Source: Rhodospirillaceae bacterium MC! (GTDB lineage: Bacteria; Pseudomonadota; Alphaproteobacteria; MC1). Taken from it: 64,000 nucleotides of DNA. The translations under genes were made by a program, and so were the position numbers. The stretch covers positions 55,583-119,582 of the forward strand of contig NQOV01000007.1 of the NCBI GenBank assembly GCA_002632265.1, written 5' to 3'. The stretch's first letter is position 1, and every line of letters begins with the position of its first letter. This document shows positions 1,000-62,170 of this stretch, piece after piece. Under the pieces are notes generated by a model that worked only from the letters and a program-made list of their open reading frames with translations, was not told the DNA's origin and ran no database searches.

Positions 1000-3900
1000 T
1001 TACTTTTCCACAACAGTCATATTTTTAGGATCTAAAACGCTATTTTTTACTTTTAGATGTAAATGAATACTATAATAGTTAGAATACAATCTTGATAAAT
1101 TGGTTTCAATAAAATGAAGCTCTCTATTTTTAATGGGATGTTTTAGAACGTTTTTACCATATGTACTTTCGCACCCTTTGAGATTCTCACATGCTATGGC
1201 AGGCGTATCGGCGTTGCTTGTAAGGATATCTTTATTTATGATAATTTTCTTATTATTTTCATTAAAATCCTTTACCATAAGTAAGGAATAAAACTTGCGG
1301 AAAGCTTGTATGGGATAAACTTTTGTTTCAAGTTTACTATCGCCAAAGCTATGATCAGCTACAAGGACTATTTTAGTATTATCATAGATATCATTAGCCT
1401 TTAGCCAATCAATAAACTTCGAAATGTAACGAATAGTACATTTACCGCTTGTATAATGGGCGTTATTGGTGATACTACTATTGGGAGTATACAATGTTTG
1501 ATTATTAAAAGTATCAGGCAAACAAGTACTACTATTATAAGCATAAGGCGGATGGGTTAAGGTGGTTTGATAGAATTTAAATGTTGCTTGCTTGGAATTC
1601 GTATCACTAATATACGGCAATGAGGCTACAAAATTTAACTTATGAAAGATATATGAATAATCTTTATTTGATGTTAACCAATTACCACCATTATATATGT
1701 ATGGACGTATATAATAAGGAGCTATCTTGAAAATTGAAACCCACGCTACTTTTAACGGATTACTTGTTCTCTTATTTTTTAATAGCTCAACAGCTTGGGG
1801 AGATATCTTTTTCCAATAGGGTGTATAATCGGCATTTGCATTGGACCAATCTTCAATACAATTATCTATGAGATCCTTATATGAGTAGCAGTTTTTCCCT
1901 GCATATGCAAGCATTTGCGGTCTTACTAAGCTCGTATTATAATCATTATCCTTAAAGATTTTTAGCAGTCTTTTATATGATAGAACAAAATTACCTAATA
2001 TTGTACCTTTGCGTTCTTTATTTTGAATGTATGGTGTATATTTTAATCCGCCTACGATTCCATATAAGCCTGCATAAGTTCCTGCTCCTACGGATATACT
2101 ATTGGAATATAAGGTAAATCCTGTATAGCTATTTAGATAATTAAAATCTTCTTTGATCATTTGAGATACAAATTCGTTAGTAAAACCATCTGTCATAAAT
2201 ACAACAACGTTCTTCTTATCTTTGGAAAAACTTGTGGTATTCATGGACGGCGATCCCATTAGATTCTTAGATATTACCATATTATTCTTTACAGTGCGAA
2301 GTTTATTAAAGTTTGTTATGTTCACTTTGTAATATAATCCCGCTCCCACTGATACAATAAAAAGCAAAGCCACTACAGTTTTTAAGGATGTTAAATATTT
2401 TGATCTCGCAATAATTAAGGCCAGCAAAAAGAATCCTGAAAGTAATAGGATGTCTTTTAATATAGTGATTTTTGCGAATAATTTATTGGTATCATTAAAG
2501 GCAAATCCTGTCATTAACCCGTAATCTCCTTTAAATACAAAGGCATATACTAAAGCTGAAAATAGAAAGCCAAAACAAAATAAGCTAAAGGTCTTCAATA
2601 TCTTTTTAGGTAAGATGTTGTAAATCATCAATAAAATAAAAACAATAACTCCAGCAATGGGGAGAGTGGTATTCATTACCGCATCAGGTTGTAAATCGAA
2701 TGCGGTTTTGTCGTTACTCATTAGGGAAAAAGGAAAATACCAAAACAATATGCTTGATAATGATAAAAGCGACAGCAAAAACAAACTAAAATATTTATGA
2801 ACACTCTCTTTATGTATATTATCTTTATGTATATTATCTTTATGAACACTATCTTTATCAACCATAATTCCATAAGCTCGCACGAGCCATAGACCATTGA
2901 TAATATTAAATATTAGTTCTATCCCTAAGATATCACGGCGATAAGCGTTGATATTCCCAACTCCATAAAATAGTAAATATACATGAATGAATAATAGAAC
3001 GATAATAATAAAATTTAGAATCGCTAAAACAATACAAGTTGTATTTTTCTTAAAATTAAAAAGAAACTGACCCAAACCACAAACAAAAAATACGGATAAT
3101 ATCAAAATTATTGAATTGTAATTGGATACATACTTAGGCGTTGCCGTAGTTACGGTAAATATGGTGTAAGATAAAGCAAAAAACAACACTAACAGACTAA
3201 AAGATATGGCTAGAAAAAGGTTAGAGTAAATAAAATTCTCACTAATATAATCTAACAATCTCTCGCCTTTTTTCCCTTTTAAATGGACTTGTGTATTAAC
3301 TGGCGAAGATATTTTGCCTTGTGTATTTTGCTTTCTAGATCTGTATTGATCCAGCATGTTATAAACGATATTTTTCCCTAAAGAGAAGATATTATTTAAA
3401 GTCCAATATAAAACCAAGGCCACAGGGGAATTATATAATAATACTAGAAATAAAATTGAGAGAACCCACAATTGGATCTTGTCTTTTTTGCCGAGGTTTT
3501 TTGTGTAGATATAAGCACTGGCGATGTTAATAACTGTCATTAATATGGGCATAACATTTATATGGAAGTTGGCAATAGATATCAAGTTATCAGGTTTTGC
3601 CAGATCCTTAAATATCATGAATGACACGCCATTTAAGGCAGTATAATGGCTTAACAAATGGTAAGCAGAAAAGAAAAATGGTACTTGAATTAAAAAACCA
3701 AAGCTTGTACGCACGGCCATAATTGGATGATATTTGTGTAATTTATAAATAAAATTCATCATCATCATACGTTCTTGTTTTATGAAGTTCTCTTTTACGA
3801 AATCCACTTCGCTTTTCATTTTTGCTTGGATAGAACGTTCGGAATTCTGCCACACTTCGGCAAGATTATACAAAGGCAACAGGATAATATTCACAACAAG

Positions 3901-4011
3901 ACTTAAAATAATAATCGCCACACCGTAAGATAAAAAGGCAATATAAGATTTTTTTAGTACTAAATCCATGATCAATTCTAGCGGTGCGATTAATAATAAA
4001 TATAAAAACAT
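1000..4011 (-). CDS. Fusion protein. It has an N-terminal YidC/Oxa1-family insertase core (~230 aa), a central polytopic membrane domain with a (KDNIH)x2 repeat, and a C-terminal extracytoplasmic LtaS/MdoB-like sulfatase (alkaline phosphatase superfamily) domain.
   Basis: The N-terminus matches the YidC core (…PLYNLAEVWQNSERSIQ…MQ…FGFLIQVPFFFSAYHLL…PVALVLYWTLNNIFSLGKNIVYN). The C-terminus has the sulfatase/LtaS pattern (KKNVVVFMTDGFTNEF … VLVADHSFGD). Multiple hydrophobic helices lie between. It is a single uninterrupted 1003-aa ORF. Confidence 0.6.
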   Translation of the reverse strand: MFLYLLLIAPLELIMDLVLKKSYIAFLSYGVAIIILSLVVNIILLPLYNLAEVWQNSERSIQAKMKSEVDFVKENFIKQERMMMMNFIYKLHKYHPIMAVRTSFGFLIQVPFFFSAYHLLSHYTALNGVSFMIFKDLAKPDNLISIANFHINVMPILMTVINIASAYIYTKNLGKKDKIQLWVLSILFLVLLYNSPVALVLYWTLNNIFSLGKNIVYNMLDQYRSRKQNTQGKISSPVNTQVHLKGKKGERLLDYISENFIYSNLFLAISFSLLVLFFALSYTIFTVTTATPKYVSNYNSIILILSVFFVCGLGQFLFNFKKNTTCIVLAILNFIIIVLLFIHVYLLFYGVGNINAYRRDILGIELIFNIINGLWLVRAYGIMVDKDSVHKDNIHKDNIHKESVHKYFSLFLLSLLSLSSILFWYFPFSLMSNDKTAFDLQPDAVMNTTLPIAGVIVFILLMIYNILPKKILKTFSLFCFGFLFSALVYAFVFKGDYGLMTGFAFNDTNKLFAKITILKDILLLSGFFLLALIIARSKYLTSLKTVVALLFIVSVGAGLYYKVNITNFNKLRTVKNNMVISKNLMGSPSMNTTSFSKDKKNVVVFMTDGFTNEFVSQMIKEDFNYLNSYTGFTLYSNSISVGAGTYAGLYGIVGGLKYTPYIQNKERKGTILGNFVLSYKRLLKIFKDNDYNTSLVRPQMLAYAGKNCYSYKDLIDNCIEDWSNANADYTPYWKKISPQAVELLKNKRTSNPLKVAWVSIFKIAPYYIRPYIYNGGNWLTSNKDYSYIFHKLNFVASLPYISDTNSKQATFKFYQTTLTHPPYAYNSSTCLPDTFNNQTLYTPNSSITNNAHYTSGKCTIRYISKFIDWLKANDIYDNTKIVLVADHSFGDSKLETKVYPIQAFRKFYSLLMVKDFNENNKKIIINKDILTSNADTPAIACENLKGCESTYGKNVLKHPIKNRELHFIETNLSRLYSNYYSIHLHLKVKNSVLDPKNMTVVEK

Positions 4012-4049
4012 GTTATTTCCTTTTTTCCTGTGTTTTGTCTTGTGTTCTT

Positions 4050-5348
4050 TTATTGTGAGCGGTGTTCGTCATAGAGTTTCATTAAAGTATCGGCGGCCAC
4101 CTTTGCCACATTTCCGTAATTATATAAACTTTTATTACGTAATTTTGCGATGTTTTCCTTAAAGTTTTGATTAGCCAATAAGTCGGAAATAACATCCGTG
4201 ATATTATCTATTTCTTTTAAGGATATTTGCTGACCCATGTCATTTAATATGCCCAATTCCCAAGCATTTTTCCCTAAGAAGTGGCCATCAGTACCGCCCC
4301 AATTGGCTTTAAATTTCATAGTAATTACAGGCTTTTGGAAAACAAAAGCATAATCAAAAATCACGCCAGACATATCAGAGATCATTATATGGCTATTCAT
4401 TAAGACATGAAAATTATCAGCCGAGTTATCCCATTCTAGATTTTCAAAGGATTTAAGATCATCTTTTATGCTCGCTATCATCTCGGATTCGGAAATAAAA
4501 CTCTGCGGATGAGGACGAATAATAACTTTATGCCCTGTTTCTAGTATACTTTTTATGAAATTCGAGCCGAACATTTTCAACAAGCCATTATTTCCCCATG
4601 TGGGAGCGATGAGAATGGTCTTAGTTTGCTCATTGGCTATAACAGGAGCTTTGTAATTCTTGATTCTTTCTTGTAATTCATCCATATATGGAACACCTAC
4701 ATTATAGATATCTTTCTTTTTAGTATCTCTTAAGCTTTCCAACTTACGTAAATTTATGCTTTGATGTTCGCCACTTACCATGATACTATCATAGCAATCA
4801 AAGGAAAAAAGCTTATACAAGGCAACATCTGTACAGGCATGAAAAATATAAGTATAATGTTTCACGCCACGGGATTTTTTAATCTGTAACACATCCAAGC
4901 CCGGAGTGGTTGAGACGAAAATATCGGCCTCGAGCATATTTAAAGTGATAAATGCCGAATTGCCTGTGCCTATATATACGCTCTCCACTAGCTCGGAAGA
5001 GAATTTTAAGCCTAAATCCTGCTCATCGGAGCTAAGATAAGCACATTTTACATTACGGCGAGATAATTCTTCAATGATTGGCTTGAAAGTATGCCAATAC
5101 TGTCCACCTTCCGAATAGAAAACAATAGAATATCGGCTTTTTTGCTTTACTTTTAGCCCAAAAAGACCCAAAACAAAGGATTTTATGTTATAATAAGTAT
5201 TTTTTAGCACGAAAAAAGTCGTTGCCACAATTCCCAAGATAGCCGAAAGTAACATACTTCCAGTACCAGGATCTAGATAAGCATATGAATTATTTATAAA
5301 TATACTCATATAGAATAAAGATAAAAAGGCAACAGATAAAATTTTCAT
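4050..5348 (-). CDS. CDP-glycerol glycerophosphotransferase family protein (TagF/TagB-like) with an N-terminal signal/TM segment.
   Basis: The motifs LIAPTWGNNG and IIRPHPQ match the TagF family motifs YAPTWR and HP. The gene sits in an operon with tagD. Confidence 0.65.
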   Translation of the reverse strand: MKILSVAFLSLFYMSIFINNSYAYLDPGTGSMLLSAILGIVATTFFVLKNTYYNIKSFVLGLFGLKVKQKSRYSIVFYSEGGQYWHTFKPIIEELSRRNVKCAYLSSDEQDLGLKFSSELVESVYIGTGNSAFITLNMLEADIFVSTTPGLDVLQIKKSRGVKHYTYIFHACTDVALYKLFSFDCYDSIMVSGEHQSINLRKLESLRDTKKKDIYNVGVPYMDELQERIKNYKAPVIANEQTKTILIAPTWGNNGLLKMFGSNFIKSILETGHKVIIRPHPQSFISESEMIASIKDDLKSFENLEWDNSADNFHVLMNSHIMISDMSGVIFDYAFVFQKPVITMKFKANWGGTDGHFLGKNAWELGILNDMGQQISLKEIDNITDVISDLLANQNFKENIAKLRNKSLYNYGNVAKVAADTLMKLYDEHRSQ

Positions 5349-5363
5349 AAAAAACCTTTATTT

Positions 5364-6257
5364 TTATTTGTAAATGGTTACCAAGATACTACCTGCTAAA
5401 ATGAATCCTGTAGCGGTTAATCTTGACATGATATTTTTTTCTTTTAAAATAAATTTTGCTAAAATTACAGATATGGGAATATCCCACAAACGTAAACTAT
5501 TTACAAGAACCATATCGCCATTCATACTTTCGGCTAGCAGAATTAAAAAGTAAGAAATATAATCAGTAATCGAGGCTGTAAGCAGTCTTACGGCATTCTT
5601 TTTATAGATTATAAATAGATTCGGTATGTATCTCAACTTGCTTTTAGACGCTCCAAAGCCAATAATAAAAAACAACAACGTACAGAATAATAGGTTATAA
5701 AACAAATATGTTGACGGTGCAGGCTTGATTTCTGCTGGTACTTGCATGGCACGAGCGTCGGCGATGAAGTAGATTACAGATCCCAATAGAGCCATTAAAG
5801 CAAAGAGAATCGAGGATTTATTTTCCTTTCTAAATGATCCCTTTTTAATGACTGTCCAACCGTTATATATTACGATTACACCGAAGATAATTAAGGCTAT
5901 TCCAATTAAAAAGTATGGTTTGTATGTGGTATCCCACAAGATATAATTTACAAAAGCAATCAAAAATGGCGATGATCTAAATATGGGAAAATACACCGAG
6001 ATATCGCCCTTTTTCAAGGCAAAAGCAATCCCTGCATAATACAATAAGTTACCAAATGCACTTAGGATACAGTAATAAAATGTCAAATCTGCCATTTGCC
6101 AACTTGATTGAGTTATAAGGGTTTGAATTCCTGCAATGGGGACCCAACCTGCAACCGCCAATAAATATAAATCATAACGTGGCTCTTTTCCCTTTAAGAC
6201 AAGATCTCTTAAGGGATGAAAGATAGCTGATAATAATGCGTAAATAGTAACAATCAT
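5364..6257 (-). CDS. Polytopic inner-membrane protein, EamA/DMT-like, ~10 TM.
   Basis: 297 aa that are almost entirely hydrophobic helices. A two-repeat architecture is suggested. No catalytic motif was recognised. Confidence 0.3.
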   Translation of the reverse strand: MIVTIYALLSAIFHPLRDLVLKGKEPRYDLYLLAVAGWVPIAGIQTLITQSSWQMADLTFYYCILSAFGNLLYYAGIAFALKKGDISVYFPIFRSSPFLIAFVNYILWDTTYKPYFLIGIALIIFGVIVIYNGWTVIKKGSFRKENKSSILFALMALLGSVIYFIADARAMQVPAEIKPAPSTYLFYNLLFCTLLFFIIGFGASKSKLRYIPNLFIIYKKNAVRLLTASITDYISYFLILLAESMNGDMVLVNSLRLWDIPISVILAKFILKEKNIMSRLTATGFILAGSILVTIYK

Positions 6258-6275
6258 GCGTAAATTTTCTCCAAC

Positions 6276-6749
6276 TTAATCCAGTTTAAATTCTTTAGAT
6301 ATAAACTCAATCATTGTTTTAGCAAATAATTGAGTGGTATCATTTTGTTTATTGTTCGTGTTCATTTGGACGATAGTATTAAGCACTCTTTGACGAATCA
6401 ACGAGCTACTAATCCCTTGAGTACGTGGGAAAATTTTTAGTTTATCTTTCGGCACATCATTCACATTATCATCTCCATGGACTAGAAGATCAATGTTGTG
6501 TTTAATTAGGAAATCATTGTCGACCAACCAGTCAGTAGGCACTACTTCATCCACATATCTTATGGCGTAAAGGATTTCCGCTCGTTGATCATAGGTAAGT
6601 TCTGGCGTGTATCCCTTAGAACCTTCGACAGCGTCATCACGAGATAGGGCAATAATCACAGTACCACCCAACTCTTTAGCTTTTTTCATTAATCTAACAT
6701 GCCCATGATGTAAAATTGTAGCTGACATATCAACCATGATTCTTTGCAT
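6276..6749 (-). CDS. tagD: Glycerol-3-phosphate cytidylyltransferase (CDP-glycerol synthesis).
   Basis: The HxGH nucleotidyltransferase motif (TILHHGHVRLMKKAKELG) and RYVDEVV are collinear with B. subtilis TagD (~130 aa core). Confidence 0.8.
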   Translation of the reverse strand: MQRIMVDMSATILHHGHVRLMKKAKELGGTVIIALSRDDAVEGSKGYTPELTYDQRAEILYAIRYVDEVVPTDWLVDNDFLIKHNIDLLVHGDDNVNDVPKDKLKIFPRTQGISSSLIRQRVLNTIVQMNTNNKQNDTTQLFAKTMIEFISKEFKLD

Positions 6750-6822
6750 GACTCAAATACTTTCAAATATATAACAATAATTTAAGGAAAATATTATCAT
6801 AAATGTTAAGATATTGCAAGAA

Positions 6823-8238
6823 TTATTTATTCTCTTGATTTTTTATCATTTTGGGTTTGATCTTTTTGTGAAGTATGTATATGAATACGGGAGTTGCCAC
6901 AAGTACATTAACCAATCCGCCTGATACATGAGCATATAAGGGCGACATTACTCCAGCAAAAGAGTAAAATTTACTTAAATATATATCAAAAACATAAGAC
7001 ATAGGGGCGGTATAAATTACCATGCGGAAAAAGTTAAAGAATGTAGCTAATAATGGATGACCAGAGGCTATAAATATACCGTTTAAACAAAAAGATATGG
7101 TTAAAACGATCCATAAAGGGGTTAAGTAGTTAAAATATTGGTTAAACATGTGTTTTGTTAGTTCGTTATGTTCCAAAGAGAATATACGAATCAGTAAATT
7201 AGTTCCGCCCAATAACAGACCTGCCCAGATGATAAGCACGTAGATAATGGTTATAACGATCGCCCATTTGGTAGTACCGACCAAGCGTGAATAATTTTTC
7301 GCTCCGTAATTTTGCGAGATTATAGGGCTGATCGCTCCACCGATCCCAAAGGCAAGCGAGCCGAATATCAGCGGTATCACTCTGTTAATTATGGCCATTG
7401 ATGACATTACTTCCGTGCCGTGTTTTGACGCAATATGAGTACCAACCATGGATGTAATAGTCGGCGAAACCATGGTGAAAGCAGTGGAAAAGAAGTATTT
7501 TAGTGATCTTTTCACATCCATAAAGAACCATTTTCTAGATGTTTTCACAATAATTTTTAATTTCAAATGAACTTGGGAAAAGGTTATAACTAAGGTAATT
7601 AATGCAGATATCAGCGAGGCCCAGGCTGCACCGTCTACCCCTTGATGTAAGTAAAAGATGAAGATTGGATCTAAAATGGCATTGATTGCCGACATGGTAA
7701 TATTAATAAATAGAACCCCTTTAGCGTCCCCCGTTGCGGATCTGATACCGTTGAGAATCATAATGAGATTGGCAAATATGACAAAAACCAACATAATAGA
7801 ACCGTAGGACATGGCATAATCATATGTTATCCCATTCGCTCCGAGCATTTTGTAGAAAAATGACTGGATACTAAAGCCAACTATTAAAACTACAGCCAGA
7901 AGTATCACACTTAGGATGATCATATTAGTAGCATAAAGGCGAAATTTGTTAGGACGATTCAAGCCAATTAAATGCCCACTTATGGTCGCCGCCGCCGTAG
8001 ATAATCCCGCTGCTACTGGGAAAAGGAAGAATAACAGCGTACCTGTGTAACCAATAGATGCGGTAATATGAATGTCGTGAAGTTTTGATAGAAATAACAC
8101 ATCCACCAACTGCACCACCGACAAAGCTAAAATACTCAAAGCCGATGATGAAAGCATGGCAAGAATATGCTTTAACAAAGATCCTGTTAAGAATTTACCG
8201 TATGTACTAGTTCTTTCTTTGATTAAATTATCAGCCAT
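6823..8238 (-). CDS. MATE/MOP-superfamily transporter (12 TM). Given the context it is possibly a polymer/lipid-linked precursor flippase.
   Basis: 471 aa with the MATE-like N-terminal pattern (KHILAMLSSSALSILALSVVQLVDVLFLSKL). It is the first gene of the minus-strand operon, preceded by a 316-bp AT-rich region. Confidence 0.55.
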   Translation of the reverse strand: MADNLIKERTSTYGKFLTGSLLKHILAMLSSSALSILALSVVQLVDVLFLSKLHDIHITASIGYTGTLLFFLFPVAAGLSTAAATISGHLIGLNRPNKFRLYATNMIILSVILLAVVLIVGFSIQSFFYKMLGANGITYDYAMSYGSIMLVFVIFANLIMILNGIRSATGDAKGVLFINITMSAINAILDPIFIFYLHQGVDGAAWASLISALITLVITFSQVHLKLKIIVKTSRKWFFMDVKRSLKYFFSTAFTMVSPTITSMVGTHIASKHGTEVMSSMAIINRVIPLIFGSLAFGIGGAISPIISQNYGAKNYSRLVGTTKWAIVITIIYVLIIWAGLLLGGTNLLIRIFSLEHNELTKHMFNQYFNYLTPLWIVLTISFCLNGIFIASGHPLLATFFNFFRMVIYTAPMSYVFDIYLSKFYSFAGVMSPLYAHVSGGLVNVLVATPVFIYILHKKIKPKMIKNQENK

Positions 8239-8554
8239 AATCTTTACCCCTATCCCTATTATATTCCACTTAACTTTATACTAATTTTTTATTTGTTGTT
8301 CTTGATACTGTTTTTATATTCCATATTATCTATAACATATTATCTATGAGCTATGAATTATTTTATATTCATTTAATATGATATCATAAAAAAAACAATA
8401 GTAAAACAAAAATATTTTATATTACTATAAAAAATAAAAAAGAGAAGAGTAAATATAATTACTCTTCTCTTTTTATTAACTTTAACAATCACTTATCACA
8501 GTCATTAAAAATATCGTACAAGATTTTTAATGGGGGCGAAAATCTATATTATAA

Positions 8555-10327
8555 CTACAGATCCGAAACTTTTGCTAAGAAATCATTAATTTCTTTTTCT
8601 AAGTTTTGTGTACTGTGCATGATATTACTTGAGCTTGTTTCCATTTCTTTGGCTAAAGTATTGTTATCAGTTAACTTACCGTCAATGGTTGTAATATTGT
8701 TGGTAATTTTAGATGATTTATTATTCGCCTCATCTAGATTCTTTGTTACATCGGCAATTGTTACCGCTTGTTCTTCAATGGCCGCAGCTGCACTGTTAAA
8801 GCGATCGGCAGACGATCCCAACTCATCCAAGACAAAGTTCACTGCCTCGGTAGCCTCTTTTGTTACGTTCTGTACTGTATCGATTTGAGTGGTAATATTC
8901 TCGGTAGCTTTGGCAGTTTGTGCTGCTAGATTCTTAACTTCCGACGCCACCACAGCAAACCCTTTACCAGCCTCACCTGCACGAGCGGCCTCAATGGTTG
9001 CATTTAAAGCAAGCAAGTTAGTTTGATCGGCGATATCGTTAATCAGTTGAGCAACTTCGGAAATTTTATCCACAGATGTAACCAAGTTATTAATGGTATT
9101 CACCGCTTTTTCCCCTTGTGTTACACTTACAGAGTTACGTTTTGCCCCTTGGTTAATACTCGCACTAATTTCCACAATAGATTCATTTAACTGTTCGGCA
9201 GCTGCTGAAATGTGTGATAAATCTTCTGACGCCTCGGTAGAGAGTGTTTTTACAGATTGAGAGAATTCCAAACTTGCAACGATACCCACTCCTGAACTGG
9301 TAGATTTTTCATTAATATCAGTAATATTTGTATTCACCTTAGATAAAATAGTCCCGATACTATTTTTAAAGTCTGCAATATATACCTGTTGTTTTTTCGT
9401 AACTTCTTCGGCACGTTTTTGGTTTTCTTTAATTTTGATGTTATTGGCATCACTTTCTTTCATTTTATCTCTAAAGTCCATTAAACTTGCACTCATAGAT
9501 CCAAAGGCTGTGCCTGCTTTATAAACAGGAATAACCACATTAGGCTCACGATTAACTAAAGAGTATAAGGTGTTATTAATTGTTTTAATATTCTTGATCA
9601 TACCTAGGAAAATAGACGGAATAATATAAATTACAGTAACTAGAATTAAAATTAGATTAACTATAATTAGGATTAAGTTATCCATTAACACTCTATATAA
9701 TAGGGTACTAACTGGAGTTACAAGCTTAGAGGCACAAATAGTCCAATGTAACACAGGAGTACGTTTTGAGTAACCCACTAAATTTTTAAAAGTTCCGTTT
9801 TGATCTTTCCAGCTATAATAAATAGCCTGACCATTTTTATTTTTAATGGCATTATCAACGAATTGTTTGTGAGATTTTTGTAAGTTAAAGCCTTTAGCTA
9901 AACCATCAGGAGCGATGGCCGCAATTTTCACATCATCGGTTAAGGCGAAAGCGTAGCTACCTGTTTTATCATTAAAGATATAACCTGATCCGAATGTGGC
10001 ATTTTTCATAATGGCGTTAGCTCTTTTTATACCCTCTTCTTGTGAAATTTTCACATAAACTCTATCTGAACCATTACCGTTTGGTCCGATCTTTTTACCG
10101 TATTTTTTGGCTTGGTCTGGATCGTAAACGATGTCAACGTAATGCCCTTTCATATCTTGTTCCACTTGATAGATTTGAGCTGAAATTACTTCCACAACAT
10201 CTTTTAGGGAATCATGATCAGCCTTTTGCGAATCCGTAGCAGCAATACGAATAGATATTAAGACTGTTATCGCTAATATTAGAATGATAACAGTTAATAC
10301 AATAATTAAATAATTGCGTAATTTCAT
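8555..10327 (-). CDS. Methyl-accepting chemotaxis protein with a periplasmic single-Cache (sCache_2-like) sensor domain.
   Basis: N-terminal TM, a Cache-like periplasmic domain, a second TM, and the conserved MCP signalling motif ([39 protein letters not shown]). The RBS is aaggaag. Confidence 0.85.
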
Positions 10328-10578: not shown

Positions 10579-11184
10579 TTAGTTACTTATCTTAGCGGTA
10601 CAAATTGTCCAATGTAGTATTGGGGTACGTTTTGAGAAACCCACTAAATGTACAGAGTTTCCGTTTGGAGTTTTCCATTGATAATAAATAACCCCACCAT
10701 CTTTATTTTGTTTAGCATTATCAACGAATTGTTGATGAGAGGGTTGTAAGTTATAGCCTTTAGTTAAACCATCAGGAGTATCCGCTGCAATTTTCGCGTC
10801 ATCGGTTAAGGCGAAAACGTAGCTACCGCCCTTTTTATCATCAAAGGTATAACCTGATCCGAATGTGGCATTTTTCATGATGGCGTTGGCTCTTGCAAGC
10901 CCCTCTTCTTGTGAAATTTTCACATAAACTTTTTCCGTGGCAACACCACCAGCTCCGACGGTTTTACCATATTTTTGGGCTTGCTCTCTATCATAAACCT
11001 TAGTAACGTAATGCCCTTTCATATCTTGTTCTACTCCATATATTTGAGCTGAAACTAATTCCACAAGATTCTTTACGGAATCCGCATCATTTTTTTTCGA
11101 AAGTTTTGGCAAATACGAACACGAACAGATAGCAACACTAATTATAGCTAAAAATACATAACGTAAATATCTTTTTAATATCAT
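10579..11184 (-). CDS. Standalone Cache-domain lipoprotein/periplasmic protein, a paralog of the MCP sensor domain.
   Basis: Residues ~55-200 are ~75% identical to MCP residues 40-200 ([17 protein letters not shown]… KISQEEG(L/I)(A/K)[15 protein letters not shown]…). An aaggaga RBS precedes the internal ATG (MILKRYLRYVFLAIISVAICSC signal), so the start is set at 11184. Confidence 0.6.
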   Translation of the reverse strand: MILKRYLRYVFLAIISVAICSCSYLPKLSKKNDADSVKNLVELVSAQIYGVEQDMKGHYVTKVYDREQAQKYGKTVGAGGVATEKVYVKISQEEGLARANAIMKNATFGSGYTFDDKKGGSYVFALTDDAKIAADTPDGLTKGYNLQPSHQQFVDNAKQNKDGGVIYYQWKTPNGNSVHLVGFSKRTPILHWTICTAKISN

Positions 11185-11341
11185 TTGATTTCTCCTTAAA
11201 TTGTTTAGATAATGGATTGTAATACATTTTTCCCCATAATGCAATAATTTTTAAGAAACTAAAAAAAAACTCTAAACATCTATTATATTAGATGTTTAGA
11301 GTTTTAAACTTTACTAGTGAATTAGTTAGGAAATTATTAAC

Positions 11342-39948: not shown

Positions 39949-40293
39949 TTAATAGGTAATAGTACCTAAAGTTGTACCCGTATATAAATCAATTGATATT
40001 ATTTTCTGTTTGTGAGTGATACTATTTACACAATATAATAATACTAATTTCCTTTGGACTTGTGGCTTATCGCAGTGAAAATTCTCGCCTGCTTGAATTT
40101 CCACATTGCCGAATTTTTCCAAGTTGGTAACATTCGGCGAAAGGATATTACTTTGCACAACTTGAGAATTTTCCGTACTGTGATGTGCGGGTGCGTGTGT
40201 GGATCTTACCATGCCTATGATTAAGATAGGAATACCTAAAGCAAGCAAGGCGGACATAATATATACAGATATTTTGATATATTTTAAGTTCAT
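39949..40293 (-). CDS. Hypothetical small protein with a single N-terminal TM.
   Basis: ORF only. A hydrophobic N-terminus is followed by a His-rich linker. Confidence 0.2.
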   Translation of the reverse strand: MNLKYIKISVYIMSALLALGIPILIIGMVRSTHAPAHHSTENSQVVQSNILSPNVTNLEKFGNVEIQAGENFHCDKPQVQRKLVLLYCVNSITHKQKIISIDLYTGTTLGTITY

Positions 40294-40497
40294 TTATTAG
40301 TTCCTTATTATCTTTAAAACAATATAAAAGATTAGATTGAGATTCATTATAACACAAATAAAATAATTTTGTCTATTATTTTATTTATTTATTTATTATT
40401 AATGCTTTACCAGTGGTTTATATCTTAATGTTTTGAAGATATCTGCGAATTTTTATCAGCAAATTTTATAGCATATAAAAAATAAATAAAAAACTCC

Positions 40498-40526
40498 TTG
40501 CAATTGTTAAGATTCTGTAGTATGAT
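40498..40526 (+). promoter_or_regulatory. Sigma-70-like promoter upstream of rpmJ.
   Basis: TTGCAA, a 17-bp spacer, then TATGAT. It lies ~45 bp upstream of the rpmJ start. Confidence 0.45.
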
Positions 40527-40572
40527 CTTCTCAAGTTTAAATTATTTAATTGATGAAAGTAAGGACATTATT

Positions 40573-40698
40573 ATGAAAATTCGTAATTCTTTAAAATCAG
40601 CTAAATTACGTGAGCGTGGCTGTCGTATCGTTCGTCGCCGTGGTCGTACTTACGTAATTAACAAACGTAACCCTCGTTTTAAAGCTCGTCAAGGCTAG
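40573..40698 (+). CDS. rpmJ: 50S ribosomal protein L36 (41 aa).
   Basis: [41 protein letters not shown] matches alphaproteobacterial L36. The larger track ORF 40498..40698 is an upstream extension. Confidence 0.75.
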
Positions 40699-40850
40699 TA
40701 CATCCTTTTGTATTACATCCTTGAAAGAAAACAGATTCTTATATTTATAAGAGTCTGTTTTTTGTTTTGTTTATTTGACATTGTTTTTTAAGGTTGGTAT
40801 AATGGTTATAATATTATGGATTCGTTATGGGTTAAGGAAAGATTAGGCAT

Positions 40851-41993
40851 ATGAAAAAATTATTATTGATATTGGCGATATTGGGATTTACAATCAGTAA
40901 CGCTTATGCGGAAAAGTTGTTTATAAATAAGAAGAATGCAAAAACTATCACATTACAACAGGTTGAAACAGCGTTAAAAAATGGGGCTGATATTCATAGA
41001 AATGAATATGGTACAACATCATTAATGTGGGCTAGTAGAGATAACCCCAACCCTAAAGTCATAGAAGTATTATTAAGTAATGGTGCTAATATTCATGCTA
41101 AAAATAACTTAGATACTACTCCATTAATGATTGCTAGTGGGTATAATCCCAATCCTAAAGTAATAGAATTACTATTAAATCACGGTGCAAATATTCATGC
41201 CATAGATATATGTACTCGTATGCCATTGATGTTTGCTAGTGGGTATAATCCTAATCCTAAAATAATAGACTTATTATTAAAACATGGTTCAAATATTCAT
41301 TCTAAAGATTGCGAAGGCATGACTCCATTAATGATTGCTAGTAAATCGAACCCTAATCCTCAAATACTAGAATTACTATTAAAACACAGTGCGAATGTTC
41401 ATGCTAAAGATAAAAAAGGCAATACATCTTTAATATTAGCTAATAAGGTCAAGAAACCCAATATTAAAGTAATAGAATTATTGTTACAAAATGGGGCGAA
41501 TATTCACGCTAAAAATAAAGAGGGTACTACCCCATTAATAATGGCTAGCAAGAATGTAAAAACAAATCTTAAAGTAATAAAACTATTATTACAACATGGT
41601 GCGAATATTAATGCTAAAGATAACTATGGTATGACACCTTTAATGAATGCTAGTTGGTTAAATTCAAATCCTAAAGTAATAGAATTACTATTAGAACAAG
41701 GTGCAAATATTAATGATAAAGTTAACGACGGCACTACGCCATTAATGTTTGCTAGTTGGTTTAACCATAATCCGCAAGTAATAGAATTGTTATTAAAACA
41801 TGGTGCAAATATTAATTATAAAGCTAAAAACGGAGCAACACCATTAATGTATGCGATTAATTATGCCAATCCTGAATCAGCCAAGGTCTTATTAAATCAC
41901 GGAGCTAAACCAACAAAAAAGATATTAAACTATATAGATACAAAATGTAAGAATGGTAAACTTATAGAATTATTTAACAAATATCCAAGATAA
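40851..41993 (+). CDS. Ankyrin-repeat protein (~10 repeats) with an N-terminal signal peptide.
   Basis: Repeated 33-aa units (TPLMIASGYNPNPKVIELLLNHGANIHA…) and the signal MKKLLLILAILGFTISNAYA. Confidence 0.85.
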   Translation: MKKLLLILAILGFTISNAYAEKLFINKKNAKTITLQQVETALKNGADIHRNEYGTTSLMWASRDNPNPKVIEVLLSNGANIHAKNNLDTTPLMIASGYNPNPKVIELLLNHGANIHAIDICTRMPLMFASGYNPNPKIIDLLLKHGSNIHSKDCEGMTPLMIASKSNPNPQILELLLKHSANVHAKDKKGNTSLILANKVKKPNIKVIELLLQNGANIHAKNKEGTTPLIMASKNVKTNLKVIKLLLQHGANINAKDNYGMTPLMNASWLNSNPKVIELLLEQGANINDKVNDGTTPLMFASWFNHNPQVIELLLKHGANINYKAKNGATPLMYAINYANPESAKVLLNHGAKPTKKILNYIDTKCKNGKLIELFNKYPR

Positions 41994-42034
41994 TAATATT
42001 ATATATAATAAACCCATTTACATATCTTTAAACT

Positions 42035-43018
42035 TTATAGGTTATTTAGATCTATGTTTCTTCTATATTTAATTATAATATCTTTATTACAACACGGCAT
42101 AATGTTACCAAATTGTTCTATTGCTGGTATACTTTGGAACATATTGAAACTTGATTCTTCATCATTATTATTGCCTGCTGGTTGAATAGGGTTTATTTCT
42201 CTAGTAATATGTAGAATTAATTTGTATTGTGAATTCTCTTGATGTTCAGGAATAACTTTGTGATCAAAAGATTCATAAATTCTTTCTTCTAATATTTTCC
42301 TAGTAGAAAGTAATTGACTAAATATTTTACAGTTTGGAAGAATAGGGTTATAGTTTTTAAGTTCTATTATATAAACTGTATTATTTAATATAATGACATC
42401 ATCACATCGGCTATTCTGTTTTTGTGCTAAAGTATATTCTAGTTTTTCTTTCATGATATCAAGATCTGACTTTACTCTATACTGCTCGCACAGTTGAAGA
42501 ACCTTGTTATCTATACCATTTTGGATTGTATTAATTTTTGAATTGAAATAATCTTCTCGGTTATTTGTAACAGCTTTACGACGATTATATTTTTCAATTT
42601 TTTTTGTAGCTTTATTTCTAGATTTTCTTATTTCTTCATCTAATAAGGCTCGTTTAGCCTCTTCAATACTCTCTTCATAGTTAGAAGTTTGAAATGGCTT
42701 TAAAAAGCAAGATTCTATTGTGCGTGGACAACATTGATGTGCTAAAGATCCAAGTAGGGGGCTTTCGTCATCATCATATTCATATTCTGGTAGTCTAGGT
42801 GGTAACCTATTTTGATTATTTGATAATTGATCATCAAAATTAGGTATATGCACAAATGTATCTTGTGCGGGATTAACTTTTAAATGAGCAAATGGGGGCG
42901 GTGTAGAATCTTCTGATAAATTAATTGTAAGAGTAATATCTGTATTATCTTGTTCTATATTATTGCGGTAATCGTTTATTTTGTGTGTTAGAAACTCATT
43001 ATTTTCGGTATTAGTCAT
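42035..43018 (-). CDS. Hypothetical protein with a disordered N-terminal half and a putative PD-(D/E)xK nuclease-like core. It is translationally coupled to the upstream ATPase.
   Basis: The start ATGACTAA overlaps the ATPase stop. A candidate motif is CDDVIILNNTVYIIELK (D…ExK). No HNH or TOPRIM motif was seen. Confidence 0.3.
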   Translation of the reverse strand: MTNTENNEFLTHKINDYRNNIEQDNTDITLTINLSEDSTPPPFAHLKVNPAQDTFVHIPNFDDQLSNNQNRLPPRLPEYEYDDDESPLLGSLAHQCCPRTIESCFLKPFQTSNYEESIEEAKRALLDEEIRKSRNKATKKIEKYNRRKAVTNNREDYFNSKINTIQNGIDNKVLQLCEQYRVKSDLDIMKEKLEYTLAQKQNSRCDDVIILNNTVYIIELKNYNPILPNCKIFSQLLSTRKILEERIYESFDHKVIPEHQENSQYKLILHITREINPIQPAGNNNDEESSFNMFQSIPAIEQFGNIMPCCNKDIIIKYRRNIDLNNL

Positions 43019-44525
43019 TATTCTTTCTTCTATGCTTATTGGCTATATCGTTTGTAAAATTTAGTATTTCATTTTGTTTTTTCATGGCATTATTAAAAGA
43101 CTCTAAATAAAAGCCATATTGATTTATTTCTTGTTGTTGGGTGTATCCATTATTATTTAGTGCATAAATATTTATTTTCTTTTGATTCATATCTAACAAC
43201 ATATTTTCACTTACATCTGTAAAGTTATTTAAATCTTTTTGATCTAATTCAGACATCTCAATACTACCCAATGCAACTAGTGCATTTAGTTCTCTGATCA
43301 TATAATCGCTATGGGTTGTTATTAATACTTTTAAGCCTGCGTTAATCATCATAGCTATAATTCTAGCCATTTTATTTTGGTTGGCAGGGTGTAAATAGGC
43401 TTCTGGCTCATCTATTATCAAAAAATCGCCCCTGCGTGCTTGATGTTTAAGATAGAAGTATATGAATGTTAAATTACGAATAGACGCAGAAAGTTCACGA
43501 TATGAAAGAAAATCACTTTCGCTTTTTACTTCACATTTACCATTCTTACAAGAATTTTCCTTAAATGGTTTAAAGTGAATACCGTCTTTATCATTATAGT
43601 CTATTCGTCCACCCATTAGTAATTCAAGTTCTTCAATTATAGGAGTGTTGCCATAATGGCCTTTCTTTCTTTTATTTTTATCCGTAATGTAAGATAGTTC
43701 TTTACCAAATTGAATATTATTAAATACTGGTTCTACATAGCCAATATTTTTATATAGTTGATTGTTAAATAGTAATGCTCCTGATCGCTCGGTTGTAGCA
43801 ATTTCAATATTTGTAAAAAATTCTTCTCTAAGAATTAAATGGCTGACTAAGTCAATTAAAATATTTTGTAAGCTTTTGTTCACATTTTCATTTGATAAAA
43901 TTTCTTTTTCTTCTTTTTCTTCTTCATATTCGTCTTCTTCGTCGATATAAAATGAAATTTGCATCCATTCATTATCTTCTATAAAGGTATTATATCGCTC
44001 TAATCGTTCTTGAAAATTTATATCTACTACTTTGTTTTCAAAATCAAATGAGAACAATCTATTTATTATATTATATCTACTAATTTGTTTCATTAATTTA
44101 AAAAAATCATCGTTAGTTTTAGTATTTACTATTTCAACTTTTAAAGGTTTTGAATCTTCATTTTTAAATCGGTCAATAGATGTATTAAACACCTTACTTA
44201 AATCTAACAGGGTTAACTCTTGTTCTATTAGATTTATATAAATCTCTTCTATTATTTCTTGAAAAACATCTGTAGATATTTTTATTCCATATACTTTACT
44301 TTCAACAATACTATTAATTACTTCAAAAGTTTTCTTTAATTTTGTAGGATTCAATTTTCTTGTTTTTTGATTATTTCTATTTTCTTGAATCTTAGTCATA
44401 AGTTTCCATATGCTATATGTTATATAGCTTTTTCCAGTAGAATTTTCTCCTGCGATTATGGTTAAGTCGCCGATTTCTATATCAGCTTTTTTAACTGCTC
44501 CTAGATTTTCGATTTGTACTTTCAT
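43011..44525 (-). CDS. AAA_21/AAA_15-type ABC ATPase (SMC-like; the defence-associated ATPase family of PtuA/AriA/OLD N-domain type).
   Basis: N-terminal Walker A (AGENSTGKSY), a central acidic coiled region, and C-terminal Walker B/D-loop/H-loop (DFLIIDEPEAYLHP … VLITTHS). The RBS is aaggaga. Confidence 0.6.
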   Translation of the reverse strand: MKVQIENLGAVKKADIEIGDLTIIAGENSTGKSYITYSIWKLMTKIQENRNNQKTRKLNPTKLKKTFEVINSIVESKVYGIKISTDVFQEIIEEIYINLIEQELTLLDLSKVFNTSIDRFKNEDSKPLKVEIVNTKTNDDFFKLMKQISRYNIINRLFSFDFENKVVDINFQERLERYNTFIEDNEWMQISFYIDEEDEYEEEKEEKEILSNENVNKSLQNILIDLVSHLILREEFFTNIEIATTERSGALLFNNQLYKNIGYVEPVFNNIQFGKELSYITDKNKRKKGHYGNTPIIEELELLMGGRIDYNDKDGIHFKPFKENSCKNGKCEVKSESDFLSYRELSASIRNLTFIYFYLKHQARRGDFLIIDEPEAYLHPANQNKMARIIAMMINAGLKVLITTHSDYMIRELNALVALGSIEMSELDQKDLNNFTDVSENMLLDMNQKKINIYALNNNGYTQQQEINQYGFYLESFNNAMKKQNEILNFTNDIANKHRRKNND

Positions 44526-44603
44526 GCTGTTATCTCCTTGGTATTAATGTAACCATATCATAGGGTAGTTTATTTTGTCAACAATAAACGATCAAGGGGA
44601 AAT

Positions 44604-47460: not shown

Positions 47461-49428
47461 TTACTGTTCGAGTAGTACATCTTGTTTGTGTATTTCTTCG
47501 GCGGATCTGCCAGCTTGGAAGTGGAAGCATTCTTGGAATATGGGGTTGGTGCATGCTTTACATTGGTCGTAGTCAAGTTGTTTATACAAGGCTGATAAGG
47601 CTTGATGTTTTCCAGAATAGAGAATGTTCGGATTGTGTATGCCGTATTTGTGTAATCTGTTTAGGATGTTAGGGCCTAGGCTTGCGATACATAGTCGTCC
47701 TTGATGTTTTTCTACTATGGAATTTAAGACGTGTGCACCGTCCCAATCGATATTTGTGATCCCTTCGCCACATATCATGATAAGGCTTGCGTTGTTACGG
47801 GTGTTTATGATGTTTTTAATTGCCTCTTCGACGAATTGAGATGAGCCATAATAAATAGCTCCTTGAATACGTATCATAATAATTTGCGGACAATTACTGG
47901 TTTCATGGTTGGTATTGCTTACGATGAAACGGCGTTTACTTTGTAAGTATTCTAAGACAAAAATACGAGGTTTTGTTGTTCTGATGATAAAAATCATTAA
48001 CGAGGCAAAGACCCCGAAATAAATGGCATTCTGTAAGCCTAAAAGTATGGCACTAAAGAAAGTAACGGCGATAATAAATCTTTCTGATCTACTACGTTTT
48101 ATGATCTCGAGTATTTGTTTGAATTTAATTAGCTTAATGCCGATCAGTAAGATAATTCCTGATATTACAGGAATGGGAATTCTATGTAAAATACTTCCGC
48201 CAAATAGTAAGGCGATTGTAACTGTGATACTGGTAACAATGCCAGCCATAGGGGTTCTTGCTCCGCTATCAAGGTTTAAGCCTGATCTTGAAAATGATCC
48301 GCAACTTAGCATGATTCCGAAAAAGCTCCCTAAGGCGTTTGATATCCCTTGGTTAAATACTTCTTGTCTTGTGTCTATCTTTTGGTGTGTTTTCTCTGAT
48401 AATGCCGACGCTATGGAAATGGCAGAGATTAAGGATATTATTGATAATCCGAATCCGTTTAAGGCTAGATGTTCAAACTCGCTAAAATTCATTCTTGGTA
48501 GAATAAATGTAGGCGTGATATGCCCAGCTTGTGGGGCGAAGTTTAAAGAAAATGGGCTATTGGTGGTAACCAAATAAGCAATGACCGACATTATTATAAT
48601 ACTAGCTAGATTCGCCAGTCCACTGCTTATTTTTGTGGATAACAATACGGTTAAGATTATAGTGATAACACTAATTGTTAAGGCAAGAAAGTTAGTGCCT
48701 GTGGAAAATTCTGTAGCGATGTGATATAAGCCATGCCACATTTCATATTCTTGATCAAAATGGAATCCTAGAGCGGTTTTTATTTGCTTTAAGACGATCA
48801 AAACGGCGGCCCCTGCGGTAAAGGCCTTTAATACGGAATTGGAAACGAATCGTAAAAGAAAATCAAACCGTAAAAGATACAAAGCTACTTGGAAGATTCC
48901 CCCTAAGAATGTTAATGTTAAAACAATATGAACATAATTAGGACTACCTGCAGGGAAATCAAAAGCCCCCGCCATGGACGCTAACAACATGGAAACCGCA
49001 ATGGTTGGACCATTTACCATATGACGAGAAGAGGCGAAAAAAACAGATATCCACGGAATCACAATAGCAGTATAAAAACCATACTTCGCAGGAATCCCTG
49101 CAATGGCCGTAAAGGCGATACATTGGGGGATCACAATTAAGGCGGTAATAAATCCTGCTATTATATCGCCCTTAGCGTCTTTAAAGCTGTAGGTTTTTAT
49201 CCAATCTAAAATTGGTAGGATGTCTTTGATCGCCGTTAGAAGAGGCTTTTTTTCTTGGTGGTTGGATAAATATGCGTAATAATCGCCATGATAAATATCT
49301 AGATGTTTGTTGGTGTTGAGTTTTGTATCATTCTCAAGCGTGCTTTCGCTTTGATTTTCGCTGGTAGTGTTATTATCGCTGTCGCTGTTGTTATCGTTAT
49401 CGTTGTTGTTTATATGGGTATTATTCAT
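47461..49428 (-). CDS. SulP-family anion transporter with a C-terminal STAS domain and an N/D/S-rich N-terminal extension.
   Basis: SulP signature region (…GDIIAGFITALIVIPQCIAFTAIAGIPAKYGFYTA…) and a C-terminal STAS-like fold. Confidence 0.8.
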   Translation of the reverse strand: MNNTHINNNDNDNNSDSDNNTTSENQSESTLENDTKLNTNKHLDIYHGDYYAYLSNHQEKKPLLTAIKDILPILDWIKTYSFKDAKGDIIAGFITALIVIPQCIAFTAIAGIPAKYGFYTAIVIPWISVFFASSRHMVNGPTIAVSMLLASMAGAFDFPAGSPNYVHIVLTLTFLGGIFQVALYLLRFDFLLRFVSNSVLKAFTAGAAVLIVLKQIKTALGFHFDQEYEMWHGLYHIATEFSTGTNFLALTISVITIILTVLLSTKISSGLANLASIIIMSVIAYLVTTNSPFSLNFAPQAGHITPTFILPRMNFSEFEHLALNGFGLSIISLISAISIASALSEKTHQKIDTRQEVFNQGISNALGSFFGIMLSCGSFSRSGLNLDSGARTPMAGIVTSITVTIALLFGGSILHRIPIPVISGIILLIGIKLIKFKQILEIIKRSRSERFIIAVTFFSAILLGLQNAIYFGVFASLMIFIIRTTKPRIFVLEYLQSKRRFIVSNTNHETSNCPQIIMIRIQGAIYYGSSQFVEEAIKNIINTRNNASLIMICGEGITNIDWDGAHVLNSIVEKHQGRLCIASLGPNILNRLHKYGIHNPNILYSGKHQALSALYKQLDYDQCKACTNPIFQECFHFQAGRSAEEIHKQDVLLEQ

Positions 49429-62146: not shown

Positions 62147-62170
62147 ATATATTGTGGCAGTCTTAAAATT

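Follow-up and report, generated by a model that had tools for sequence, protein, structure and literature searches.

A candidate salvage-type gene cassette for decorating the bacterial envelope with a nucleotide-activated, probably phosphonate, head group

A 64-kb stretch of contig NQOV01000007.1 from Rhodospirillaceae bacterium MC! (assembly GCA_002632265.1), called the window below, carries a minus-strand cassette of four genes (1000-6749) whose products, at a probability that we put near one half, place a cytidylyl-activated phosphono or phospho head group on the cell envelope, the likeliest precursor being imported 2-aminoethylphosphonate (AEP) or an analogue. The genes encode a fusion of a YidC-like domain to a transferase domain of the alkaline phosphatase (AP) superfamily, a TagF-like phosphotransferase, an EamA-family membrane protein and a PF01467 cytidylyltransferase. 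The locus would be a salvage-type member of an uncharacterised envelope-decoration system that uses a nucleotide-activated head group, probably a phosphonate. An earlier note on this DNA had read a five-gene set (1000-8238) as a teichoic-acid-like CDP-glycerol pathway. The set is real, five co-directional minus-strand open reading frames (ORFs) with gaps of 38, 15, 18 and 73 bp in order, and the families assigned to it (MATE, HxGH cytidylyltransferase, EamA, TagF-like, LtaS/EptA-like fusion) hold in Pfam and NCBIfam. The teichoic-acid reading itself survives as a logic, that of a head group activated with a cytidylyl moiety, a transferase like TagF and a further, extracytoplasmic one like LtaS/EptA, but not as a glycerol-phosphate polymer: nothing found points to a polymer over decoration with a single head group.

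The most constant feature of the system is a pair of genes. The search for related loci used a 30-sequence alignment of TagF-like proteins (the single window protein as query gave no match) and found 365 loci in 185,579 species genomes; the locus surveys given here cover the 80 best of these. Genes neighbouring them were scanned by tblastn with seeds for phosphonate genes, transporters and the cassette itself; phosphonate markers were counted within 10 kb, and a locus is termed fully flanked if it has at least 6 kb on both sides (n = 36 of 80). A fusion gene lies beside the TagF-like gene in 69 of the 80 loci and in every one of the fully flanked loci (36/36), and the same pair is present in metagenome contigs L002-L005 and L087-L089. 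The pairing is obligate across phyla, while the genes that would supply a substrate vary from locus to locus. In public databases the two go under the names "CDP-glycerol glycerophosphotransferase family protein" and "YidC/Oxa1 family membrane protein insertase," in our view a mis-annotation of both. A literature search found no description of the gene pair; the combinations YidC with sulfatase, PF02096 with PF00884, and PF04464 with phosphonate all gave no result.

The hosts of the 80 best loci belong to Nitrospirota, Desulfovibrionaceae, Spirochaetes (including Treponema), Gamma- and Betaproteobacteria, Clostridia and other groups, mostly diderm lineages. A locus of this kind is thus not out of place in a diderm, and the suggestion that it was an unexpected import from Gram-positive bacteria lapses. 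No alphaproteobacterium occurs among the named relatives of the TagF-like protein or the cassette, so that the widespread alphaproteobacterial orthologues that would have spoken against the earlier note were not encountered there. A protein search with the TagF-like sequence retrieves 4723 proteins at E<=0.001, the best 120 being 42-53% identical, and at E<=1e-30 the family forms 439 clusters (50% identity); the window protein is a member of a distinct, well-separated family rather than a stray teichoic-acid enzyme. The closest relative, at 53% identity, comes from a metagenome-assembled genome (MAG) labelled SAR324 (HCM1, GCA_002995645.1), whose contig has a GC content (32.6%) much like that of the window, for which reason its taxonomic assignment may need checking. 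In this MAG (L001/L006, PUHO01000019.1), DUF2924 and large serine recombinase genes (1228-2477) lie directly upstream of the cassette.

Several genomes have two to four tandem paralogues of the fusion gene. At the Treponema putidum ATCC 700334 locus (L082, 4539-18069), four paralogous genes for proteins of about 900 residues flank one TagF-like gene, and genes for GT2 and GT25 glycosyltransferases adjoin the array; tblastn matches one copy, at about 15.2 kb, to the fusion, and the other three are assigned by size. Should all four prove to be fusion paralogues, a single enzyme making the donor could serve several transferases, each with its own acceptor. The long members of the TagF-like family were considered as possible Rosetta-stone fusions to the YidC/AP protein; none proved to be one, and one is instead fused to a GT4 glycosyltransferase.

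The fusion protein consists of three parts. Residues 1-230 form a YidC/Oxa1-like core of five transmembrane (TM) helices, confidently modelled by AlphaFold2 (AF2), in which residues 29-218 match 60KD_IMP (PF02096; E 2.7e-21, 76.7 bits against a cut-off of 35) and fall marginally under the cut-off of TIGR03592 (83.6 bits vs 84.3). Residues 231-400 hold roughly four variable TM helices and are poorly modelled. Residues 401-1003 comprise five further TM helices and an AP-superfamily domain of the LtaS/EptA/PbgA kind; the confident TM helices of the model span 404-565, the AP domain spans 590-1003, and residues 600-888 match Sulfatase (PF00884; E 1.5e-6, 28.2 bits against a cut-off of 25). The sulfatase-like domain had been recognized before as an LtaS domain fused to something unnamed, and that partner is now seen to be the YidC/Oxa1-like domain. 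Nine TM helices beyond the YidC core, together with the positive-inside rule, predict a periplasmic AP domain. A 15-nt tandem repeat within the gene (2794-2862, 4.6 copies) encodes (D/E)x(I/V)HK pentapeptides at residues ~385-403, which belong to a loop, predicted to be cytoplasmic, in the variable TM region of low model confidence.

The YidC-like domain aligns to Bacillus halodurans YidC2 (3wo6) and to Escherichia coli YidC, retains the five-TM core and the LIQxP and YW..N motifs of YidC/Oxa1 insertases, and is 56% identical to that of a Neptunomonas homologue. It differs from the insertases in being fused to a transferase and in having lost the arginine of the hydrophilic groove (R72 in B. 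halodurans YidC2, R366 in E. coli): the corresponding residue in the window protein is Asn41, and over 38 homologues the column reads N 33, T 2, S 2 and Q 1, never R or K. For the AP part, Foldseek finds full-length PbgA/YejM (6xlp), MCR-1 (9nww), LtaS (2w5r) and LtaP, although sequence similarity to any solved member is insignificant (searched against the PDB by sequence, the AP domain gave no significant match). LtaS, EptA/MCR-1, OpgB and PbgA/YejM share with the fusion the five TM helices followed by an extracytoplasmic domain of sulfatase fold. With the LtaS/EptA-type enzymes the fusion also has in common a metal site and, at the start of a helix, a Thr nucleophile. D608, T645, H820, D886 and H887 are invariant in 38 of 38 fusion homologues; in the AF2 model helix 645-657 starts at T645, while D608 comes after strand 601-607 and the D886-H887 pair after strand 879-884. 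Assigned by position in the model, these five residues fit the metal and Thr nucleophile site of the superfamily, which would thus be intact. LtaS/EptA-type enzymes move a head group from a membrane lipid to an envelope acceptor, EptA from phosphatidylethanolamine and LtaS from phosphatidylglycerol; by analogy, a lipid may be the head-group donor of the AP domain here. Unlike those enzymes, the fusion carries some 400 extra N-terminal residues (the YidC-like core and the roughly four variable TM helices), and its presumed donor is the product of the TagF-like enzyme, not bulk phosphatidylglycerol or phosphatidylethanolamine.

It might be supposed that the neighbourhood is coincidental or degenerate, with the 1003-residue protein a true YidC insertase paralogue bearing an inactive sulfatase-like appendage and the other genes unrelated to it. 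The plain insertase annotation in public databases agrees with this, as does the best fold match, since PbgA/YejM is catalytically inactive. We nevertheless hold it very improbable: the gene is paired with a TagF-like gene in all fully flanked loci across phyla, D608, T645, D886 and H887 of the metal and nucleophile set are invariant, it is the insertase groove arginine that has been lost family-wide, and the cassette genes are separated by only 15-38 bp.

The TagF-like protein scores 48.8 bits against PF04464 (E 6e-13, gathering cut-off 22.1). Its AF2 model (pLDDT 86.7) is a GT-B fold, and the top five Foldseek matches in the PDB are all chains of TagF, the Staphylococcus epidermidis poly(glycerol-phosphate) polymerase (3l7k/3l7j; E 7e-14 to 1e-12, ~18% identity). 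The motifs named in the earlier note are present (APTW and RPHPQS here, HHGH in the cytidylyltransferase), and the family profile aligns APTW, HP and SDxS to the donor site of TarL (8va1); the protein keeps the TagF-like fold together with these motifs, which speaks against placing it in a different glycosyltransferase family. Family-invariant residues include A248, P249, W251, H280, P281 and H170; the last, which follows strand 162-168 in the model, is a candidate equivalent of the TagF catalytic base H444. Two N-terminal hydrophobic helices flank a YLDPGTGS motif, and a basic stretch behind the second helix predicts that the catalytic domain is cytoplasmic. Within (A)YLDPGTGS (residues 23-32), Y24, D26, P27 and S31 are invariant and the other positions are at least 90% conserved across phyla, in a region where AF2 confidence is low. 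For a cytoplasmic enzyme to have so conserved a motif at the membrane or past it suggests that the motif is a docking site, the YidC-like protein being one possible partner.

The cytidylyltransferase matches CTP_transf_like at E 5.5e-16, and its best PDB sequence match is TagD (1coz, E 6e-19), with human CTP:phosphoethanolamine cytidylyltransferase (ECT) nearly equal at E 1.4e-17. Its top NCBIfam model is the TagD equivalog TIGR01518, which it fails with 76.4 bits against a cut-off of 165.4; the orthologues from L007 and L087 reach 83 and 74 bits. In sequence, HHGH and RTQGISSS line up with the HxGH and RTEGISTT nucleotide-binding motifs of 1coz, but such motifs are common to the whole PF01467 family and do not discriminate in favor of TagD. 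Of the TagD lysine pair Lys44/Lys46, which contacts the substrate phosphate, K44 is kept and K46 is replaced by Tyr in the alignment to 1coz. The loop KGYTPEL matches instead the KGxxP motif seen in ECT (KGPPVFT), in phosphocholine cytidylyltransferase (CCT) and in the cytidylyltransferases fused to PepM, and a conserved C-terminal extension of ~35 residues has no counterpart in TagD. The enzyme is thus not a TagD equivalog. We propose that it activates a head group, making CMP-AEP or a CDP-X compound.

Related loci suggest what may be fed to the pair. A phosphonate marker occurs in 33 of the 80 loci and in 16 of the 36 that are fully flanked, to be compared with a pepM frequency of ~5% of bacterial genomes (PMC8942020). 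Genes for PepM, Ppd and an aminotransferase or iron-containing alcohol dehydrogenase (Fe-ADH), that is, for biosynthesis of AEP or 2-hydroxyethylphosphonate (HEP), are found in 23 of 80 loci, usually with PepM fused to a PF01467 cytidylyltransferase; LicC/PntC-type nucleotidyltransferases are found in 20 of 80. L004 and L062 are examples of the cassette within a phosphonate cluster. Orthologues of the window cytidylyltransferase itself occur in 18 of 80 loci (tblastn E 1e-44 to 1e-65, ~60% identity by eye). Nine of these share the operon order cytidylyltransferase-PhnS2-PhnT2-PhnU2-fusion-TagF-like, with the cytidylyltransferase first and with stop and start codons that abut or overlap (translational coupling); the Photobacterium PhnS2 scores 421 bits against a curated cut-off of 393. 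The SBP_bac_6 relatives AepX, AepS and PhnS are experimentally supported 2AEP binding or transport proteins (PMC8316502). In three more loci the cytidylyltransferase is preceded by an ATP-binding cassette (ABC) importer of the polar-amino-acid type, in one (L006, the closest relative) it is followed by an EamA gene as in the window, in one (L062) it closes an operon of fused cytidylyltransferase-pepM, ppd and aminotransferase genes, and four are bare three-gene sets with no importer or pepM nearby. Altogether 14 of the 18 orthologues have an adjacent importer or transporter (13) or belong to a pepM operon (1). Metagenome contig L087 repeats the window order, cytidylyltransferase-EamA-TagF-like-fusion. 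A substrate-binding protein (SBP) encoded upstream in L087 was considered as UgpB-like, which would have favored glycerol-3-phosphate, and was rejected as a weak SBP of the sugar type.

In the window the EamA gene occupies the position that ABC importers hold in related cassettes. Its product, with about ten TM helices, aligns over its full length to its best NCBIfam match, TIGR03340, [quoted passage not shown] at 83 bits against a cut-off of 288; a search of its sequence against the PDB gave no significant match. The orthologue in L001 is 56% identical and has the same place in the cassette, and the EamA-family gene of L087 shares both the position and the best NCBIfam match. We propose that the protein imports the head-group precursor. 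A tblastn search of the 64-kb window for homologues of PepM, Ppd and AEPT (E<=1e-5) found none. With a transporter in place and none of these enzymes encoded in the window, the locus has the look of a salvage variant; since the cassette has neither a kinase nor a phosphoenolpyruvate mutase, an imported precursor would have to carry its phosphorus already.

The CDP-glycerol model has to be weighed against these same observations. Under it a TagD-type enzyme makes CDP-glycerol, the TagF-like enzyme adds one or many glycerol-phosphates to a lipid-linked acceptor, and the LtaS-like domain completes or transfers the product. The model draws on the TagD hit in the PDB, the HxGH and RTxGISS motifs, the rank of TIGR01518 as best-scoring NCBIfam model, and the closeness of the TagF-like structure to the poly(glycerol-phosphate) polymerase; the four minimal orthologue loci, having no supply module, fit a substrate taken from central metabolism. 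It is set back by a TIGR01518 score under half the cut-off, by the loss of K46 in favor of the KGxxP loop, and by the importers or pepM operon at 14 of 18 orthologue loci, where the importers found are not of the Ugp or GlpT type (the sugar-type SBP of L087 included). No partner of TagA, TagB, TagO or TagGH type is conserved with the pair, in loci that were not scanned with such seeds, and there is no sign of polymerisation. In the loci as scanned, the company of the cassette is phosphonate biosynthesis or putative AEP importers instead of teichoic-acid genes. We judge glycerol-phosphate rather unlikely as the head group, but a serious rival all the same.

The same architecture could also handle a different head group: phosphoethanolamine, phosphocholine, phosphoserine or a phosphonate other than AEP, such as HEP. 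That human ECT nearly equals TagD as a match, and that the KGxxP loop is of the ECT/CCT kind, would be natural in this case. The pair is moreover found with supply modules of the AEP type, the HEP type (Fe-ADH) and the phosphoramidate type, and three orthologue loci have polar-amino-acid-type ABC importers in place of PhnS2T2U2. However, import of an intact phosphate ester is rare, the cassette has no choline or ethanolamine kinase, and the strongest specific links of the orthologue group are to PhnS2T2U2 and to a pepM-ppd-aminotransferase operon. We hold such a head group in the window to be improbable. The phosphoramidate type is seen in L088 (metagenome contig SRR12149292_8290, 156-7821), where three genes precede the TagF-like/fusion pair, encoding a PEP-utilising kinase (PRK05849), a glutamine amidotransferase resembling gamma-glutamyl-CDP-amidate hydrolase, and an NTP transferase. 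Together they make up a phosphoramidate supply module like that of the Campylobacter O-methyl phosphoramidate (MeOPN) pathway. The pair may thus install phosphoramidate groups as well, and this module marks it as generic with respect to the head group.

For an imported AEP-like precursor, the following steps are those we infer from domain identity, topology and gene association. EamA would import a ready-made phosphorus-bearing precursor, likeliest AEP or a close analogue, and the cytidylyltransferase, with CTP, would turn it into a CMP conjugate. The membrane-anchored TagF-like enzyme, at the cytoplasmic face, would transfer the phosphonyl or phosphoryl group from this conjugate to a hydroxyl of a membrane carrier, a lipid or glycolipid. 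The arginine-less YidC-like domain would offer the carrier's head group a hydrophilic path across the inner membrane, where the periplasmic AP domain, through a covalent intermediate on Thr645 as in EptA and LtaS, would place it on lipopolysaccharide (LPS), glycan or protein. Tandem fusion paralogues in other genomes would match different acceptors.

A number of points weigh against this scheme. TagD is the best single PDB match of the cytidylyltransferase, glycerol-3-phosphate needs no dedicated supply genes, and the four orthologue loci that have neither importer nor pepM present just the picture expected of a CDP-glycerol system. The EamA match to the phosphonate-associated family lies far under its cut-off, EamA proteins can also act as exporters or flippases, and the name PhnS2T2U2 is itself a putative, context-based assignment. 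The absence of pepM covers 64 kb of the genome only, and the gene could lie elsewhere. The lipid-linked intermediate and the translocating role of the YidC-like domain are steps that we infer. There is also a hint, in the family member with a fused GT4 glycosyltransferase, that the acceptor is a sugar and not a simple lipid; the carrier or acceptor may then be glycosylated.

Comparison with known systems shows where the cassette departs from each. Wall teichoic acid synthesis by the CDP-glycerol route (TagD with TagF, TagB or TarL, in Bacillus and Staphylococcus) draws on the same two families, the HxGH cytidylyltransferases of PF01467 and the GT-B phosphotransferases of PF04464, the latter with APTW and HP donor-site motifs. 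The solved structures nearest to the cassette enzymes are those of TagD and TagF, and the reaction is shared too: a nucleophile attacks the CMP-bound phosphorus and CMP is released. The window cluster, in contrast, has no TagO, TagA, TagB or TagGH genes, its obligate partner is the YidC/AP fusion, its TagF-like protein is only ~18% identical to TagF and has its own N-terminal double-helix anchor with YLDPGTGS, and its family is mainly diderm and linked to phosphonate modules. In phosphocholine salvage by lic1 (LicB, LicA, LicC and LicD, in Haemophilus, Streptococcus and Neisseria), uptake of a head-group precursor from the environment or the host by an importer of the drug/metabolite transporter (DMT)/EamA family, cytidylyl activation, and transfer to LPS or teichoic acid follow one another. 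The logic is that of the window cassette, but the membership is not: the cassette is without a kinase, has PF01467 where LicC is of the PF12804 type, has a TagF-like enzyme where lic1 has LicD, and adds a periplasmic AP-domain transferase. The C. jejuni MeOPN pathway, with its CDP-activated unusual phosphorus head group, bears a likeness to L088 only, and its supply module does not occur in the window.

A further relation is to the phosphonyl tailoring (Pnt) pathways, in which PepM, Ppd and AEPT together with PntC yield CMP-AEP (PMC6697681, PMC8942020). Homologous cassettes sit within such clusters, including those with PF01467-PepM fusions, and a nucleotidyl-activated phosphonate is bound for the cell surface, as is proposed for the cassette; the window differs in having a transporter instead of PepM, Ppd and AEPT. 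The literature describes nucleotidyl activation of phosphonates but leaves the transferases of the envelope step unidentified, and states the steps after CMP-AEP formation as unknown (PMC6697681). The TagF-like protein and the YidC/AP fusion are candidates for the transferases acting downstream of CMP-AEP in these pathways.

A more far-reaching proposal, which we offer tentatively as something of a long shot, is that the TagF-like enzyme and the arginine-less YidC-like/AP fusion make up an undescribed envelope-decoration route that supplies the steps after CMP-AEP, with the insertase-derived domain carrying a lipid-linked head group to its fused transferase, and that the window cassette runs on phosphonate scavenged through EamA in a bacterium that is probably host-associated. 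If so, the phosphonate could come from a eukaryotic host rich in phosphonolipids, and the bacterium, though unable to form C-P bonds itself, would show a host-like head group that resists hydrolysis. Cell-surface decoration takes up most of the phosphonate biosynthetic capacity of bacteria (PMC6697681), and the pair is a testable candidate for the envelope transfer. The window version suggests that phosphonate display can be obtained by salvage. This matters for host mimicry, for the ability to withstand phosphatases and phospholipases, and for estimating which organisms use marine or host-derived AEP. A YidC-like domain without its groove arginine, joined to a transferase, would also put the Oxa1 fold to a new use.

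Coordinates of the cassette and of its flanking features are collected in Table 1. A perfect 16-bp hairpin followed by a T-run separates the MATE gene from an upstream gene for a methyl-accepting chemotaxis protein (MCP), and is likely the upstream boundary of the transcription unit. The scan for terminator-like sites found none anywhere within the five-gene cluster, including the gap between the MATE and cytidylyltransferase genes; a promoter scan gave background level, and Rfam found only tRNAs in the window.

Table 1. Features of the five-gene cluster and its upstream boundary (positions in the window; amino acid, aa)
Feature	Position	Strand	Length	Family or basis
YidC/AP fusion protein	1000..4011	-	1003 aa	Pfam 60KD_IMP + Sulfatase
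5-TM anchor + AP-superfamily transferase domain of fusion (aa 401-1003)	1003..2811	-		PF00884
YidC-like domain of fusion protein (aa 1-230)	3322..4011	-		PF02096
TagF-like GT-B phosphotransferase	4050..5348	-	432 aa	Pfam Glyphos_transf PF04464
EamA/DMT-family membrane protein	5364..6257	-	297 aa	Pfam EamA
PF01467 HxGH cytidylyltransferase	6276..6749	-	157 aa	Pfam CTP_transf_like
MATE-family transporter	6823..8238	-	471 aa	Pfam MatE
Perfect 16-bp hairpin, then T-run	8437..8474	.		terminator-like scan

The MATE gene, counted in the earlier note as a member of the set, is a genuine neighbour, yet none of the 80 related loci has a homologue of it next to the cassette (tblastn), and metagenome contigs L087-L089, three further loci, are without a called MATE gene. 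It is best treated as an adjacent gene, possibly co-transcribed, outside the conserved cassette. The protein matches MatE at E 2e-32 and passes the MATE efflux model TIGR00797 (166 bits vs a cut-off of 147). A role as the Wzx/MurJ-like flippase of the system was considered and rejected, given that efflux match, a sub-threshold MurJ score and the lack of co-occurrence.

The alphaproteobacterial context claimed earlier is borne out by two other proteins of the window. The named relatives of TrkA are all Alphaproteobacteria (Rhodospirillales and similar) except for two generic "Pseudomonadota/Proteobacteria" labels, at identities of only 38-43%, and DnaX exceeds the curated cut-off of NCBIfam PRK09111, a model we take to be alphaproteobacterial. 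These sequence comparisons support a divergent alphaproteobacterium as the host. An aldehyde dehydrogenase of the window has a counterpart of 100% identity on GCA_002632305.1. Recent horizontal acquisition, by contrast, finds no backing in base composition: in GC content (0.31-0.375), in GC content at third codon positions (GC3) and in codon-usage distance the five genes stay inside the range of the other 41 window ORFs analysed, and so carry no signal of recent transfer. The patchy spread across phyla and the serine recombinase beside the closest relative's cassette are compatible with an old lateral acquisition.

A low-GC island is present farther along the window (40000-44600; 27-30% GC, GC3 0.17-0.21). 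It includes an ankyrin-repeat ORF (40851-41993, plus strand) and two minus-strand ORFs (42035-43018 and 43011-44525) for which no family match was obtained, only 43011-44525 having been scanned. The island may be a laterally acquired region of eukaryote-like effectors, and with its ankyrin-repeat gene it hints at a host-associated lifestyle.

Several smaller features of the window deserve mention. Directly 3' of the fusion gene stop (948-997) lies a 15-nt tandem repeat, TTAACTTGAGAATAC, in 3.3 copies, where no terminator-like hairpin is detected. Beyond it, a partial membrane-protein ORF on the minus strand (1-660) runs off the window start and contains an 18-nt tandem repeat (412-529, 6.6 copies) encoding acidic VDMD(S/T)S repeats, with hydrophobic segments on either side. 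A SulP-family transporter (47461-49428) has as its neighbour an anaerobic sulfatase-maturating radical-SAM enzyme (49456-50649), which is unrelated to the Thr-type AP domain of the cassette. Two tRNA-Met (CAT) genes stand in tandem at 62070-62247, 24 bp apart and with identical Rfam scores. The MCP gene (8555-10327) is accompanied by a separate ORF for a 221-aa protein (10579-11244) that duplicates only its Cache-type sensor domain, the two copies sharing long near-identical stretches.

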